The notes under the pieces are model-generated. The model had not been told where the DNA came from and searched no databases. It saw nothing but the letters and a program-made list of their open reading frames with translations. DNA of 64,000 nucleotides from Candidatus Eiseniibacteriota bacterium (GTDB lineage Bacteria > Eisenbacteria > RBG-16-71-46), in the NCBI GenBank assembly GCA_963717505.1, contig OY970342.1, forward strand, positions 1,024,001 through 1,088,000, read 5' to 3'. Numbering within the stretch: the first letter of the stretch is position 1; every line of letters begins with the position of its first letter. Made by a program: the position numbers and the translations under genes. Below are positions 8,120-14,385 of this stretch, piece by piece.

Positions 8120-8806
8120 ATGACCACCCCTCCTTCGCAACCCCAGCGTTTCGCGCGTTCCCGCGCGACCCTGATCGCCCGCCTGCTGGTCGCGGCGGGC
8201 GCTCTGCTGCCGCTGGGCGCCCAGTCCGATCTGGCGCGCAACGCGAATCCGCCACCCGCACCGCGTCTGTCGGCCCCCGAGAACGCGCTGCTCGCGGAGG
8301 ATTTTTCGAGCGGACTCGGCGACTGGGCGACCGAACACAAAGACTACTGGCACGTGCGCGGCGGCATGCTGCGCGCCGACCTCCCGGATCGCAAACAACT
8401 CCACACGCTGATTCGCGCCGGTGACACCACGTGGCACGACTATGCGCTCGACTTCGACGTCTGCGGCATGCGCGGTGTCGACAAGGGAGCGATCATTCGC
8501 GTGGTCGGCGACGTCGGCCTCGGCGTCGACCTGCGCGGTCCCGGCTACAACGACATTCGCGTGCACCTGAGCGTGTCGCCACTCGGTCGAGTGGACGTAA
8601 TCAACGCGAACGGCACGTGGCACCACGTGCGCATGGAGATCCAGGATCGCCGCTGCCGAGTCCTGGTCGGGAACGAACTCCTGCTCGACCGCTTCGTTTC
8701 GAAGCGCCTGCCACCCGGCGGGGGCATTGCGCTCGCCGCCTATACCGGAGGCGTCGGGGAGTGCACGGTCTATTTCGACAACGTGGTAGTGACGCCACTC
8801 GAGTAG
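8120..8806 (+). CDS. Exported ConA-like/DUF1080-like beta-sandwich protein
   Basis: Hydrophobic signal-like N-terminus; EDFS...W, WHHVRMEI, GGIAL, VYFDNVVV pattern of lectin/DUF1080 folds. Confidence 0.7.
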   Translation: MTTPPSQPQRFARSRATLIARLLVAAGALLPLGAQSDLARNANPPPAPRLSAPENALLAEDFSSGLGDWATEHKDYWHVRGGMLRADLPDRKQLHTLIRAGDTTWHDYALDFDVCGMRGVDKGAIIRVVGDVGLGVDLRGPGYNDIRVHLSVSPLGRVDVINANGTWHHVRMEIQDRRCRVLVGNELLLDRFVSKRLPPGGGIALAAYTGGVGECTVYFDNVVVTPLE

Positions 8807-8819
8807 ATGCGCGAAAGCC

Positions 8820-8840
8820 CGCACCCGTGCATCGGGTGCG
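8820..8840. terminator. Hairpin between convergent genes
   Basis: CGCACCCG-TGCAT-CGGGTGCG, perfect 8-bp stem, no clear U-tract. Confidence 0.4.
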
Positions 8841-8871
8841 AACTCTGCGCTGCGAGAACTGCTGAAACCGA

Positions 8872-9135
8872 CTACCAGGCCTTGCGCGCGAGCAGCGTGA
8901 GCCGCTTGCTGTCGGGGAGGACCGGTGCGCTCCGATCCAGTCGGATCACCCGGCCGTAGCCACCCGGCACGATCCGCCCCCCGCGACCGGAATCCTCGCG
9001 CTTCCGCGCCGATGCGGTCGTGACCATCGCGGCACTCAGCACCACGGCGAGCGCGAGAACCATCCCGACGTTGAGGTGCGACCTGCGGACCGCGGCAACA
9101 TTGATCCTGGCGTATTCAGAACGACGCGAATTCAT
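8872..9135 (-). CDS. Small secreted basic protein (paralog A), 87 aa
   Basis: RBS GGAGG before ATG 9135; 43-aa leader ending ASA; homologous to the neighbouring ORF 9349-9693. Confidence 0.72.
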   Translation of the reverse strand: MNSRRSEYARINVAAVRRSHLNVGMVLALAVVLSAAMVTTASARKREDSGRGGRIVPGGYGRVIRLDRSAPVLPDSKRLTLLARKAW

Positions 9136-9231
9136 GATTGCGACCTCCACCGCCCGATTCCGGGCTCGAGGAGCGGCCGGTCGTGTCGTGGTTCGAGGGG
9201 CCGGACGCTCGTCTTTCGATCCCACGGCGGG

Positions 9232-9259
9232 ACGTACCGGCGAGGTTCTCGAAGGTTGG
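9232..9259 (-). promoter_or_regulatory. Conserved bipartite motif CCAACCTTC-N10-CCGGTACGT, copy 1 (ECF-sigma-like promoter)
   Basis: Both 9-mers and the 10-nt spacing are identical to the copy at 9791-9818 while the spacers differ. Confidence 0.6.
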
Positions 9260-9293
9260 TGGGTTTCGCGCCAAGCCGCTGGAATAGCGCGAA

Positions 9294-9320
9294 GCCCTCG
9301 CGCCGCGAAGGCGCGAGGGC
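9294..9320 (-). terminator. Hairpin downstream of paralog B
   Basis: Perfect 11-bp stem GCCCTCGCGCC/GGCGCGAGGGC with 5-nt loop, 28 nt after the stop; weak U-tract. Confidence 0.55.
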
Positions 9321-9348
9321 CAGGGATCGAACGGGGCAGTCCGGGTCG

Positions 9349-9693
9349 TTAGCGGGCGACCTTGCGCGCGAACGGCAGCACGAGCCGCCAGGTACGAACG
9401 TCGAGTCCGAACTTCCGACCGAGCCCAGCACCACCATCGTGGTCGACGCCAATCTTGCGCCGGAATCCGGCGCCCCCGTCGTGATCGATTCCGATCTGCC
9501 TGCCGCCCGGGCTCTGCACTGCCCAGTCTGCGACGACACCGCGGGCGCCACCGACTCGCTTGGCGGCCGAAGCCGGCGCGGTCAGCGCGACGCACAGCGC
9601 GGCGGTCATGGCCAGCATTCCCCACCCCAACACCAGCGACCTCTGAACTCTCGCCCGGATGCTCAGGGCCTGATTCCCACGGAGCGTGTTCAT
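9349..9693 (-). CDS. Small secreted protein with tandem 14-aa repeats (paralog B), 114 aa
   Basis: 43-aa leader ending ASA; repeats GRQIGIDHDGGAGF / RRKIGVDHDGGAGL / GRKFGLD differ mainly at synonymous positions, supporting this frame. Alternative start 9705. Confidence 0.78.
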   Translation of the reverse strand: MNTLRGNQALSIRARVQRSLVLGWGMLAMTAALCVALTAPASAAKRVGGARGVVADWAVQSPGGRQIGIDHDGGAGFRRKIGVDHDGGAGLGRKFGLDVRTWRLVLPFARKVAR

Positions 9694-9790
9694 TGCGACC
9701 CCCATCCCCCCCCTCTCGGGGCTTCCGCGGGCGGCCGGTCAGGTCGTCGTTCGAGGCTCGACCGGCTGCTCGATCCTTTGCGACGCCTGA

Positions 9791-9818
9791 ACGTACCGGG
9801 GACCGGGAAGAAGGTTGG
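9791..9818 (-). promoter_or_regulatory. Conserved bipartite motif CCAACCTTC-N10-CCGGTACGT, copy 2
   Basis: Exact match of both boxes and spacing to 9232-9259, at a similar distance upstream of the paralogous start codon. Confidence 0.6.
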
Positions 9819-9894
9819 CGGCGGCTCACGGCTCTGGTGTTAGGCTCTGGGCGGTCGACGCCTGGAAAGCGTTGCCGACCCGGAGAATCGGCCT

Positions 9895-10125
9895 ATGTCG
9901 GATCGAACGATAGTCATGAGGGTCATTCCCGAACCCCCCTCCATGACGCGCACCATTCTGGTCCCTGACTTTCAGGGACCGGCGGTGGTCAGCGAGGGAC
10001 CGCTCGATTACATCTGCGGCACTTGCGCCCTGGTGTTGCTGAAGGGCGTCGCGGTCGGGATGGTCCAGAAAGTCGTCATCCGCTGCGGCGGCTGCGGCAC
10101 CTTCAACGAGATTCCTGAAGACTGA
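9895..10125 (+). CDS. Small zinc-ribbon protein (Com-like)
   Basis: RBS GGAG; YICGTC...IRCGGCGTFN, two CxxC pairs with a terminal CxxCxxxN as in Mu Com-type ribbons. Confidence 0.72.
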   Translation: MSDRTIVMRVIPEPPSMTRTILVPDFQGPAVVSEGPLDYICGTCALVLLKGVAVGMVQKVVIRCGGCGTFNEIPED

Positions 10126-10215
10126 CTCCTTATCAGGACGGTTCTCGATTTCACCTGTGCGCGAAACATCGCGGTGCCATCTACCGCAGCTTCGCGAATC
10201 GATGAGAGGCCGACA

Positions 10216-11808
10216 ATGCGCCGCATCGCAATCGTTGCCTGTGCCGCCTTACTCCTCGCGGGGTGCGGCAAGGACGACCCCACTCGTCCCGACACAGACG
10301 CGCCGGCCCTGATCGCGGACCTGACGCTGATCGCTGTCGAGGACTCGAGCGTCACACTCGTGTGGACCGCCCCCGGCGACGACGGCGATCGCGGCACTGC
10401 GGCGGCGTACGACCTGCGGTTCTCGGCCGATCCATCGACGCCGTTCGAGCTTCGAACGATGCTCGACGGAGCTCCTCGGCCCGCACCTCCAGGTACGCAA
10501 CAAGTCGCGATCCTCCATGGCCAGTCCTTCGCCGGCGACCTCTTCTTCCAGATGAAGACCGCCGACGAGAGTGGGAACTGGTCGGCTGTGTCGAACCAGG
10601 CGATGACGCGCGACCAGGTGCCGCCAGCCGCAGTGACCGACCTAGCGGCGACGACCACGGGGATGTTCGAAGTGCGAGTCTCCTGGACCTCGCCCGGGGA
10701 CGATGGGGCGGTCGGCAAGGCACAGAGTTGGGAGCTGAGATATACGACGGACCCGAGCCTCTTCGACACCGAGGCCGGCTGGGACGCCGCGACGGCCGTG
10801 TCGGGTCTACCGTCGCCCACATTCGCCGGCAACCACAACCAGGCGGACGTCGCCCTGACCATCAACACCACGTACTATCTAGCGCTGCGATCGATCGACG
10901 ACGCGGGCAACGAATCGAATCTCTCGAACGTCGTCCGTATCCGCACGGAAGAGCTGCCGGCTGCTCTGCTCGAGGAATGGCGGGACTCGCGGTTTCCACA
11001 GTACGCCGCATCCATCCAGCGGGATCGCTCGGGCGACGTCTACGTCGCGAGCATGGATCGCATCGTCCGGATGGATGCCGGTGGGAACGTCGTCTCGGTA
11101 CGGAACGGCATCGGTGGGCGCCTGGCGCTTGACCCGGACGGCAACCTTTACGCGCTGACTCTGTCGGTGATCTCCGGAGCGCGCTCGAGTCTCGTCCGTT
11201 ACTCGGAGGACGGCACGGAGCTGTTTCGCTGGAGGAGTCCGGACTCCGACTATCGCGACCTCGCGATTGACCCCTTCGGCGCGCTGTTTCTTCTGGATTC
11301 CGGCAACCGGGTCGAGGTGCTACGACCCGTCGCGGCGGCCACGAGCCCGCCTATTCTCGTGACCAGCTGGTCGATCACCAATCCAGGACTGGATAGCCCG
11401 CCCCCAACCGTCTTTGGAGGAATCGCGGCGACGAAAGACTTCGTGTACGTCATGGTTTCCTATCAAGAGACTCATGCTTTTCGAACCACGGCGCTGCAGA
11501 AGTACAGCAAGGGCGGCATGTTGATCGCGAATATTCCGCTGCAACGAACGACCAGCGGGTTCGCGACTCTACAGCTGTGCTCGAGCGACGATGAAAACAA
11601 CCTGTACGTGCTCGACAGCAGCAACGCCATGGTGAGGAAGCTCGACGCCGCCGGGTCGGTCCGGATGAGACTGTCGTCCCTGCCCGACGGGGCGGACGAC
11701 GTCGTGGCGGGCGAGGGAAGGATCTTCGTCCTGAGCCATCTCCTCTCGGGCGCCGGGTCGCTCGTGAAGGTGTACGGGTCGGCGTCGCTCGCCACGCGCG
11801 GACACTAG
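10216..11808 (+). CDS. Lipoprotein with two FN3-like repeats and an NHL-type beta-propeller
   Basis: MRRIAIVACAALLLAG-C lipobox; repeated WTAPGDDG...YDLRF / WTSPGDDG...WELRY and DESGNWS / DDAGNES; repeated D-x-x-G-x-x-Y-V blades. Confidence 0.85.
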   Translation: MRRIAIVACAALLLAGCGKDDPTRPDTDAPALIADLTLIAVEDSSVTLVWTAPGDDGDRGTAAAYDLRFSADPSTPFELRTMLDGAPRPAPPGTQQVAILHGQSFAGDLFFQMKTADESGNWSAVSNQAMTRDQVPPAAVTDLAATTTGMFEVRVSWTSPGDDGAVGKAQSWELRYTTDPSLFDTEAGWDAATAVSGLPSPTFAGNHNQADVALTINTTYYLALRSIDDAGNESNLSNVVRIRTEELPAALLEEWRDSRFPQYAASIQRDRSGDVYVASMDRIVRMDAGGNVVSVRNGIGGRLALDPDGNLYALTLSVISGARSSLVRYSEDGTELFRWRSPDSDYRDLAIDPFGALFLLDSGNRVEVLRPVAAATSPPILVTSWSITNPGLDSPPPTVFGGIAATKDFVYVMVSYQETHAFRTTALQKYSKGGMLIANIPLQRTTSGFATLQLCSSDDENNLYVLDSSNAMVRKLDAAGSVRMRLSSLPDGADDVVAGEGRIFVLSHLLSGAGSLVKVYGSASLATRGH

Positions 11809-11934
11809 GAGTGAAGCCCCCGGCGCTGGCGCGGATCCTCGGATGAAGGATAGGAACCTATTGACGGTCCAGCTTTCGCTTCATTCGTGAGCGGCCACGC
11901 TCATTCAGTGACAAGCCAGCATCGACACAGGCGG

Positions 11935-14311
11935 CTAAGCGCTCCGTCGCTCGCCCAGCAGCCTGAGCCCGTTCAGGATGACCACGACCGTGCTGCCCTC
12001 GTGCCCCGATACCGCCACCGGCAACTTGAGCGCGCCCAGCGGCGTCAGGTGGCCGAAGAACACCAGCAGCACGAGCACGAACATGACGCCGACCGCGATC
12101 ACCAGGTTCTGGGTGACGATCGCACGCGCCTTCCGGCTGAGCCGCACCGCGTAGGGCAGTGCCGTCAGGTCGTCGGCCATGAGCACGACGTCGGAGCTTT
12201 CCATGGCGGCGTCGGTGGCGATCCCGCCCATCGCGATCCCGACACTTGCGCGGGCCAGGGCCGGAGCGTCGTTGACGCCGTCGCCGACCATCGCCACCTT
12301 GCCGGCCTCCTGCTCCAGGCTGGCGATGACGTTCACCTTCTCCTCGGGGAGCAAGGCGCCGTGGTAGGCGTCGACCCCGGTTTGGCGCGCAATTGCGGCG
12401 ACCGTAGGCACGCTGTCGCCCGAGAGCACGACCACGCGGCGGATGCCGAGTCGCTTGAGTGTCGCGACCACGCCTGCGGCGGCCGGGCGCACCTGATCGG
12501 CGGCGCCGATCACGCCCCAGCGCGGGCCGCGGCGCACGATCATCGCGGTGCGCGCTTCATGACGCAGGCGCTCGAGCTCCGTGCGGGCGGCGTCCGGCAC
12601 CGCCACCCCCAGCTCGTCGAACAGCTCGGGTGTGCCGATCTCGACCGTGGTGCCGTCGACGTGTGCGACCAGCCCCTTCCCCGGATGGGATACGAGTTGC
12701 GACGCCGGTGTGAACGCGATGCCTCGCGTTTCGGCGGCGCGCACCACCGCCTGAGCCAGCGGATGCTGCGAGCGTTTCTCGGCCGATGCGGCCCAGGCCA
12801 GGATCTCCTCCTCGGACGTCCCGTCGATCGCGAGCACGTCGGTGACTTCGAACCGGCCGTAGGTCAGCGTGCCGGTCTTGTCGAAGCCCACCACTTTCAC
12901 GCGCCCGAGTGCTTCGATGAAGCGCCCACCCTTGAACAACACGCCGTGGCGTGCAGCATTCGCGATCGCTGAGAGGATGGTCGCCGGCGTGGCGATCACC
13001 AGCGCGCACGGCGAGGCGACCACCAGCAGCGTCATGGCTCGGTAGAACGACGAGGCGAACTCCTGGCCGAGCACGAACGGCGGGATGATCGCCATCAGCG
13101 CGGCACCGACCATGACCACCAGCGTGTAGTAGCGCCCGACCCACTCGGCGGCCTCCTCGGTCTGCGACTTCTGCTCCTGCGCCTCCTGGACCAGCGAGAC
13201 GATGCGCGCCAGCGTGGTATTGCCCGCGGTTCGCGTGGTGCGGACCTCGATGGATCCCTGCTGGTTGAGCGTGCCGGTGAACACCCGGTCTCCCGATGGA
13301 CTTGGCCACGGGCACCGACTCGCCGGTCAGGTGGCTCTGGTCGATGAGCGACGTGCCCGAGAGCACGATGCCGTCCACGGGTACGGCTTCTCCGGGCTTG
13401 ACGATCACGCGTTCGCCCGGCCGCACCGACTCGGCTTCGACCTCGATTTCGCGCCCGCCGCGCACCACCAACGCCTTCGCCGGCCGGAGCTTGAGCAGCG
13501 CCTGGAGTGCCCGCCGCGTACGCCCCATGGTGTAGACCTCGAGCGTGTTGCTGAGCGAGAACAGGAACATCAGCACCGCGGCCTCGAAGATGTAGCCGAT
13601 CCAGGCGGCGCCCAGGGCTGCGAGCAACATGAGCAGGTTGACGTCGAAGCGCAGCCGGCGCAGCGAGGCCACGGTCGAGCGCAGCGTGAAGAGTCCACCG
13701 GCGATCGCCGAGATCGCGAACGCGGCGTGGTGCCAGATCGGGGGAAGTGCGGTGCGCTCGAGCACCATCCCCAGGATCAGGAACCCGAGACAGGCGGCGG
13801 TGAGCAACGCCATGGCACGCCCCTTCGCGAAATGTTCTTGCTCGGCGGGCGTGAACTTGGCGCCCCACGGCTTGGTTTCGGCGAACGGCCGCGTCAGCTC
13901 GGCGCTGTCGGCCGGCACGTTGCGGCGCGTGACGCCGACCCGATCCTCGTGGACGATCGCCCGGATTTCGCCGCCCACCGAGTCCGGCACCCGACCCAGG
14001 CGTAGCGCGCACTCCTCACAGGAACCGAGCGTCTGGCGGCGTTCGCAATAGGTGACGCGTTGCGCGAACAGGGCGCCAACGTCGTCGGCCAGCTCGTTGA
14101 GCTGCTCGGTCGAGACGTGCGCCGGCTGGTAACGAACGGTGACCGTGTGCGCCTTGAAATCGGCCTCGATCCCGATCACGCCGGGGCTCATGCGCAGCCG
14201 GTCGGAGAGGATCTCGAGGCAGCCCTCGCCTTCGGGCACCGGCAGGTGGACCGGCTCCAGGGCCTCAGCGGTCGCCGACTCCGCGCGAGCAGGCTCGGTG
14301 GGTGGGTGCAT
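11935..14311 (-). CDS. Heavy-metal P1B-4-type ATPase with Cys-containing N-terminal extension (apparent +1 frameshift near 13293)
   Basis: LTGES, SPCALVIATP, FDKTGTLT, SQHP, MVGDGVNDAPAL and HEGST; SPC plus HEGST defines P1B-4. About 791 aa after correction. Confidence 0.92.
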
Positions 14312-14385
14312 GGTCGAGTGACCCTAGCACACGGGTCCGACAGGGAAGCGCCACGACCGCAGGAATGATCGGGGCGTGCCATGCG

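Follow-up and report, generated by a model that had tools for sequence, protein, structure and literature searches.

The question raised by this locus is whether a short open reading frame that carries a tandem 14-residue repeat, in a genome of 68% G+C, is a real gene and, if so, what the repeat does. The first-pass annotation of the window (the whole stretch of 64,000 nucleotides that was analysed, from a Candidatus Eiseniibacteriota bacterium) had drawn attention to a repeated glycine-rich peptide delimited by basic clusters, conserved in amino acids rather than in codons, and had likened its G-R-K spacer, by analogy only, to the Gly-dibasic processing signal of eukaryotic prohormones. The codons of the repeat, quoted there with no strand named, are read on the minus strand, inside an open reading frame at 9349..9705 (118 amino acids counted from the upstream ATG at 9705), and the features concerned are the following:

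9349..9693, minus strand: the gene, here called q1, of 114 codons plus the stop TAA (9351..9349), identified by G+C content by codon position and by the orthologue P0002
9495..9454, minus strand: repeat unit 1, IGIDHDGGAGFRRK, residues I67-K80 of the 114-aa form
9453..9412, minus strand: repeat unit 2, IGVDHDGGAGLGRK, residues I81-K94 of the 114-aa form, with the T-ending rare codons ATT, GAT, GGT (three times) and GCT
9411..9370, minus strand: degenerate unit 3, FGLDVRTWRLVLPF, directly after unit 2
9352..9411, minus strand: degenerate unit 3 (FGLDVRTWRLVLPF) together with the basic tail ARKVAR, which make up the conserved C-terminal motif of the family, LD.RTWRL.LP.AR, in the alignment

As reverse complement, unit 1 (9495..9454) reads atc gga atc gat cac gac ggg ggc gcc gga ttc cgg cgc aag and unit 2 (9453..9412) reads att ggc gtc gac cac gat ggt ggt gct ggg ctc ggt cgg aag. 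The two differ at 13 of 42 bases, of which ten fall in the third codon position, three in the first and none in the second, and at three of 14 residues (I/V, F/L and R/G). In the overlapping plus-strand frame the units are alike at only 4 of 14 residues (EPSTTIVVDANLAP and ESGAPVVIDSDLPA), and for this reason the minus-strand frame is taken as the conserved one. When the 71 residues of the mature part were shuffled 5000 times, a tandem match of 11 residues in 14 was never reached, and the highest score, 10, came up once; in a six-frame translation of the 4.16-Mb genome, the pattern D[HNDE]DGG[AGS]G occurs four times, twice as the q1 repeat itself and twice as single, non-tandem matches, one each in two other frames. 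Between units 1 and 2, 10 of 10.8 synonymous sites differ, and their identical residues use different codons at 9 of 11 positions, where 5.19 are expected (P = 0.016, in a post hoc test on few sites that treats codons as independent draws from the codon usage of the genome). The divergent codons may reflect an old duplication plus chance, or selection against DNA identity of neighbouring repeats.

An exhaustive HMMER search of 1.84 billion representatives returned four proteins at E up to 0.001, including a single orthologue, P0002 (112 aa, 65% identity to q1, E 4e-35), which is encoded on a 1654-bp metagenome contig (L030). Differences between the two genes are distributed 28/25/43 over the three codon positions, and dN/dS (Nei-Gojobori counts) amounts to 0.35 for the whole gene, with the leader at 0.80 and the mature part at 0.20; on the basis of these ratios, from a single orthologue pair, q1 is considered to be under purifying selection. 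The claim of selection on the peptide was thus borne out, as was the codon comparison behind it, with seven of the nine quoted third positions differing and a single I/V change. The basic spacers were likewise found to be conserved in the homologue, where the units read IGTDHDNRGGFGRK / IGIDYAVPGGFGRR / LGLDMRIQKLVLPL and retain the 14-residue period, the basic cluster (FGRK, FGRR) and the sequence Φ-G-Φ-D. What did not hold up is the picture of two conserved 11-mers between the spacers: 9 of 14 residues are kept in unit 1 and only 6 of 14 in unit 2, in which DHDGGAG has become DYAVPGG, so that only the first DHD is retained. The columns invariant between q1 and P0002 cluster at G76, F77, R79, K80, I81, G82, D84, G92, R93, G96, L97 and D98, that is, at the proposed cut site and in its immediate surroundings (G-Φ-x-R-K/R-Φ-G-Φ-D). 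Unit 2 of q1 is more similar to its own unit 1 (11 of 14 identical) than to the orthologous unit of P0002 (6 of 14), and this likeness, seen in two orthologues only, may stem from faster change in the P0002 lineage, from old gene conversion or from parallel selection.

The limits of the gene can be set with the same orthologue. The G+C content at the three codon positions of the q1 frame (0.72/0.56/0.80) is better than that of the four overlapping frames. The start is most likely ATG 9693 (MNTLRG..., 114 aa) rather than ATG 9705, because L030 has the upstream ATG out of frame but retains both the MN start and the GGGGGTCGCAA in front of it; all five members of the family described below begin with MN. 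The q1 ATG is preceded by an SD-like GGGGG, and the SD-like motif is also conserved in L030. Downstream of the stop codon lies a hairpin, read from the sequence:

9294..9320, minus strand: terminator-like hairpin after the q1 stop, an 11-bp GC-rich stem followed by TTCGCGCTATT

This hairpin recurs 3' of the orthologue in L030 with one T-A to T·G change, and it is missed by a consensus terminator scan because it has no T run. On these sequence features, q1 looks like a real gene rather than a chance open frame. As for expression, a 176-nt contig present in two RNA-library runs matches 8973..9148, in the neighbouring gene q2, with 0 mismatches, and leaves q1 without coverage; the two runs are equal in size and possibly represent one data set filed twice. 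The contig is a weak hint of q2 expression that could equally be DNA carry-over, and it is silent on q1. The contigs of two DNA and two RNA-library runs, all short and of low depth, leave 9185..9714, and with it the whole of q1, uncovered, which is uninformative either way.

The gene is accompanied by a paralogue:

8872..9135, minus strand: q2, the paralogue of q1, 87 codons and 87 aa, just downstream of q1, identified by BLASTP of the leader and by the family alignment

The leaders of q1 and q2 match with a BLASTP E of 2e-4 (37% over 52 residues), and q2 has the same leader and tail as q1 and one 14-residue unit fewer. Both types are also present in L030, in the order ATPase 3' end, q2', q1', and the C-terminus of the q2' protein (...LDVRTWRLRLPVARASR) matches that of q1 (...LDVRTWRLVLPFARKVAR). 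A profile built from these four proteins recovered five proteins among 6049 candidates, namely the records of the four inputs and a new q2-type protein, P0008, and to date the family thus consists of five proteins from three organisms. Identity between paralogues is 34-43%. In the five-sequence alignment the invariant residues are M1, N2, R18, A41-S42-A43, R46, R51, G52, P62, G63, G76, R79, A109 and R110; the tail LD.RTWRL.LP.AR is common to q1 and the q2-type proteins of L030 and P0008, and, relative to the other two proteins of its type, the q2 of the window is about 8 residues shorter ahead of the tail. The alignment gap of the q2-type falls exactly over one q1 unit, and the q2-type proteins show the period (...GYGRVIRLD...GKRVFDLR, with two Φ-D pairs 14 residues apart) with a core that is not repeated. 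Since they share the 14-residue period, the module is ancestral to the family, and the q1 type gained one module by tandem duplication before the q1 orthologues split.

All four small genes (q1, q2, q1' and q2') are preceded by a similar stretch of about 135 nucleotides:

9694..9830, minus strand: conserved element before q1, with the SD-like GGGGG inside it (four-region alignment, nhmmer)
9136..9275, minus strand: conserved upstream element of q2 (four-region alignment, nhmmer)
L030, 560-697 and 1092-1228: upstream elements of the L030 small genes (four-region alignment)

The mean column identity over these regions is 72% and the pairwise identity 57-70%, and from one paralogue to the other the element is more alike than the encoded proteins are. 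Its conserved blocks are CCAACCTTC, CGCCGGTACGT, CTCGAAC.ACGAC..GACCGGCCGC and ATGG(G/A)GGTCGCAA, and by nhmmer the genome holds only two copies. A small GC stem-loop stands just before the SD in all four regions, with loops that differ. A structured RNA was considered and found no support, with an unfavourable alifold covariation term (+2.19), compensatory changes in 4 of 27 pairs and fold z-scores of -0.91, -1.40, +0.15 and -0.72; a search of 8700..10300 against Rfam at E up to 1 gave two sub-threshold matches only. A promoter-like AAC...CGGTACG pattern, searched genome-wide, revealed no regulon. Judged from its sequence, the element may be a promoter/operator region or a leader that acts at the sequence level.

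Beyond these five proteins the family has no recognised relatives in the collections searched. A word-based homologue search with q1 found only q1 itself (one of 256 candidates); a six-frame phmmer search of its own genome found no further paralogue (best foreign E 0.11), and a search of genome contigs with the q1-alignment profile gave no match. In 60 genomes of relatives q1 found no member, with four weak matches (E 0.007-0.0096), three of which proved on inspection to be unrelated or compositionally odd frames; the genome collection contains no other member of the genus of the window organism. The fourth, a Gly/Asp-rich frame of 95 aa in a relative of the same family (locus L004, G007:C206:110-385, minus), has an E of 0.008 to q1 and is without GC3 enrichment; its GDPD..GG repeats, together with a signal peptide at one end and a hydrophobic-basic stretch at the C-terminus, make its architecture analogous to that of q1, perhaps without homology. 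The family profile found no member in 205 other genomes of the phylum, and four weak matches (E 2.4e-4 to 6.4e-4) were discarded, three as signal peptides of unrelated proteins and one as an odd frame. The tally over the 60 relatives, like those of the searches for the neighbouring hydrolase-like and ATPase genes, includes one unpublished genome (G038), on which no claim depends. Neither was any member present in 40 loci fetched from relatives, syntenic ones included (best E 0.16 with the profile, 0.21 with phmmer), a set in which up to 24 relatives are represented by their orthologous ATPase locus and which also takes in paralogous matches, and a profile of the upstream DNA gave nothing significant in the same 40 loci.

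Domain and structure collections were equally empty for the family, with no matches in Pfam (E up to 1), NCBIfam or PADLOC, no significant match in PHROGs (two sub-threshold ones for P0002 only, at E 0.006, to a family of unknown function, and at 0.014), a best E of 1.6 in a PDB sequence search, and 0.76 or no usable match in the ESM Atlas. The exhaustive search also assigned E values of 5e-11 to 9e-7 to P0003 and P0004, which are giant surface proteins with a repeated Ig-like domain, and to the P0005 repeat. A local pattern, W..S.PG...I.I..DGG..F, does align between these and q1, but the single stretches score 21-29 bits at 25-34% identity and some of the alignments take in the q1 signal peptide. 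The totals are sums of six to eight weak repeats, and these matches are treated as chance or composition and not as homology. A full-text literature search retrieved no paper with any of four peptide motifs from the family, and in the part of the literature on Eisenbacteria small secreted proteins that was accessible there was nothing relevant.

The surroundings of q1 comprise an arginase gene, a gene weakly similar to 3-keto-disaccharide hydrolases (Pfam E 0.019, below the cut-off), a Zn-ribbon ORF, an fn3/NHL-like lipoprotein gene and a P-type ATPase gene. The order arginase, hydrolase-like gene, ATPase is conserved. Of 24 relatives from the same family in which both of the last two genes were searched for, 16 have them converging on one contig, with a gap between them of about 5 to 2500 bp as judged from match coordinates. 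In the window this gap (8806-11935) is 3.1 kb and is occupied by q2, q1, the Zn-ribbon ORF (76 aa) and the gene of the fn3/NHL-like lipoprotein (544 aa). The gap resembles a hotspot for lineage-specific genes, and q1 and q2 are a lineage-specific filling of it. On L030, the only other gene is the ATPase 3' end, and the contig ends about 90 bp after q1'.

Several observations concern the neighbouring genes themselves. The P1B-type ATPase (13284..11935, minus), whose nearest named relative is in a Candidatus Eisenbacteria MAG (68% identity), has SPC and HEGST motifs that presumably place it in the P1B-4 subgroup. Its gene is split over two frames at about 13295-13305 (minus), within 11935-14323 (...TGESVPVAKSIG then GDRVFTGTLNQQG...), and the ATPase of the Eisenbacteria relative is a single frame of 787 aa; the split may be a genuine frameshift or may come from an indel of the assembly, the genome being a single contig that is 86.7% complete. 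The 76-aa ORF (9895-10125, plus strand), in which CxxC...CxxC occurs, falls short of the cut-off for the Mu Com zinc ribbon (21.3 bits where 22.9 are required, E 1.8e-4); it is divergent from q1, and the gene of the fn3/NHL-like lipoprotein follows closely downstream. A further hairpin (8821-8839, GCACCCG-ATGCA-CGGGTGC) is located between q2 and the hydrolase-like gene, where the two converge, and may serve as a two-way terminator.

The primary structure of q1 gives the main indication of what the protein does, beginning with its N-terminus:

9565..9693, minus strand: q1 leader, 43 residues, with 4 K/R in the n-region, then a hydrophobic core, and ASA adjoining the basic start of the mature part

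From a heuristic reading of hydropathy, charge and the family alignment, we infer that the leader is a Sec-type signal peptide cut after ASA, a motif invariant at the leader end in all five family members. At the twin-arginine position the family has RR in three proteins and QR in two, including the q1 of the window, the second Arg alone being invariant, and no match to Tat-signal families was found in Pfam or NCBIfam. The mature part (71 residues) contains 14 K/R, 6 D and 2 H, is 21% Gly, and has a pI of 11.7 and a net charge of about +8. In the AF2 model obtained with the five-sequence alignment, residues 3-46 form a helix (pLDDT 72-81) and residues 42-114 remain below a pLDDT of 50; with the mature part alone as a single sequence, the mean pLDDT is 54 and the sole element is a C-terminal helix of low confidence. 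Mature q1 is probably disordered according to these models, but low pLDDT is also to be expected of an orphan with a five-row alignment and disorder is therefore not established by AF2.

On balance, the reading that we favour, with somewhat better than even confidence, is that q1 is an exported, cationic, disordered, envelope-associated and polyanion-binding protein in which the repeat is a duplicated module. From its composition alone we infer that its function would be the binding of polyanions or membranes. The mature part is built of 14-residue modules, each with a basic cluster, the Φ-G-Φ-D sequence and a linker rich in G, P and A, followed by the conserved tail LD.RTWRL.LP.AR, and purifying selection has kept the two units alike at the protein level while their synonymous sites became saturated. 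After Sec export and removal of the leader behind ASA, the protein would stay whole and work as a disordered polycation, its basic-hydrophobic modules binding an anionic partner in the envelope or its surroundings, such as outer-membrane lipid or LPS, an exopolymer or the membrane of another cell. The repeat would in this way multiply binding modules rather than encode separate peptides.

The alternative that survives best, still an unlikely one, is that q1 is a small single-pass membrane protein with an uncleaved anchor and a basic tail held against the membrane, acting as a modulator or as a holin- or toxin-like peptide. K or R directly after the cleavage site is unfavourable for Sec export in E. 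coli, and given the K/R after the predicted site the leader could instead be such an anchor; its hydrophobic stretch of about 20 residues is flanked by basic residues on both sides, and AF2 draws a single long helix over residues 3-46. Against an anchor stands the ASA at the end of the hydrophobic stretch, found in 5 of 5 members and placed as signal peptidase requires, and neither phage or toxin-antitoxin neighbours nor a significant PHROGs match (best E 0.006, for P0002 only) point to a holin or toxin.

A more ambitious reading, to which we attach a low probability, would make q1 and q2 the founders of a class so far undescribed, namely repeat peptides of a soil candidate phylum that are polycationic, exported by Sec and active extracellularly, either as bacteriocin-like membrane-active agents or as precursors of short peptides released at the conserved basic clusters. 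They would be induced via the element of about 135 nt common to both paralogues in the two organisms, and the divergent codons of the repeat units would reflect selection against the recombinational loss of a unit. Like glycine-rich cationic antimicrobial peptides, bacteriocins and microcins, q1 is small, exported, Gly-rich and strongly cationic and has a hydrophobic-basic C-terminus; unlike bacteriocins and microcins of the glycine-rich kind, it has a long Sec-like leader instead of a double-glycine one, and neither an ABC exporter nor an immunity gene is adjacent. A RiPP multi-core precursor was also considered and set aside, as no modifying enzyme, protease or transporter of the RiPP kind is found among the window neighbours or on L030.

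Closely related to this, and very improbable, is the proposal that q1 is a multi-copy peptide precursor, exported, cut at RRK/GRK into peptides of about 11 residues (IGIDHDGGAGF and IGVDHDGGAGL) and possibly subject to Gly-directed amidation. Eukaryotic multi-copy prohormones and neuropeptide precursors, and fungal Kex2 precursors, have a signal peptide and tandem units with basic, often Gly-basic, clusters between them. The resemblance lies in the export leader, in the tandem similar units and in the basic clusters between them, which are kept in P0002, with Gly before the basic pair in three of the four units of the two orthologues. It ends there, in that q1 is bacterial, has two copies only and has cores that are not conserved (6 of 14 residues of unit 2 between orthologues, with loss of DHD). 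Conservation spans the basic cluster, and with the invariant residues sitting in and around the supposed cut site, and q2-type paralogues that keep the period without a repeated core, the 11-mer peptides put forward in the first-pass annotation are hard to maintain. The prohormone-like Gly-dibasic processing that it drew on by analogy fared no better: searches of the 86.7%-complete genome gave no matches to omptin (PF01278, for which the control in E. coli was detected) or to the convertase P-domain (PF01483, control also detected), other proteases being possible, and no protease or modifying gene is adjacent to q1. The amidating monooxygenase (PF01082) also gave no match in the genome, which is uninformative because its control was detected nowhere.

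Just as improbable is a periplasmic metal-binding role, in which q1 would partner the nearby P1B-type ATPase through its Asp-His-Asp triads. The small genes of L030 do follow the ATPase directly and on the same strand. In the window the ATPase is 2.2 kb upstream of them, likewise on their strand, with two plus-strand genes between, and both orthologues have the first DHD. The suggestion of a DHD metal site is nevertheless not supported. P0002 has DYA in place of the second DHD, Cys is absent from mature q2-type proteins, whose His number 0-1, and a net charge of about +8 is ill-suited to the binding of cations. Each small gene, moreover, has its own conserved upstream element and hairpin, and no family member occurs in the 40 loci fetched from relatives, among which are the orthologous ATPase loci. 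Calcium-binding RTX (beta-roll) nonapeptides follow the consensus GGxGxD and bear some likeness to q1, with GG.G beside an Asp, tandem units and secretion; the period is 14 and not 9, the sixth position is not Asp, the units number only two to three, and the corresponding Pfam family (HemolysinCabind, PF00353) did not match q1 at E up to 1.

Least probable of all, to the point of being scarcely tenable, is that q1 is a chance open frame in 68% G+C DNA over a repeat that exists at the DNA level, for although long spurious frames are common in high-GC DNA and four of them overlap q1, and although the first word-based search was without a homologue and q1 has no RNA coverage, the units differ at third positions, the frame is open in the orthologue with a dN/dS of 0.35, and the SD-like motif, the start and the hairpin are conserved in L030.

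With q1 read as an exported polycationic protein, the finding is that of a lineage-restricted orphan among the genes for small exported proteins, of which uncultured soil bacteria have many and little is understood. The importance of the finding would be greater if q1 were antimicrobial or processed, and the present results point to neither. As a gene, q1 is of modest value as a clear example of how an internal repeat, taken together with a single orthologue, shows a short ORF in DNA of 68% G+C to be real. For the family, five proteins in three organisms are now delimited by a defined 14-residue module, and the element conserved upstream of their genes is flagged as a possible regulatory site.
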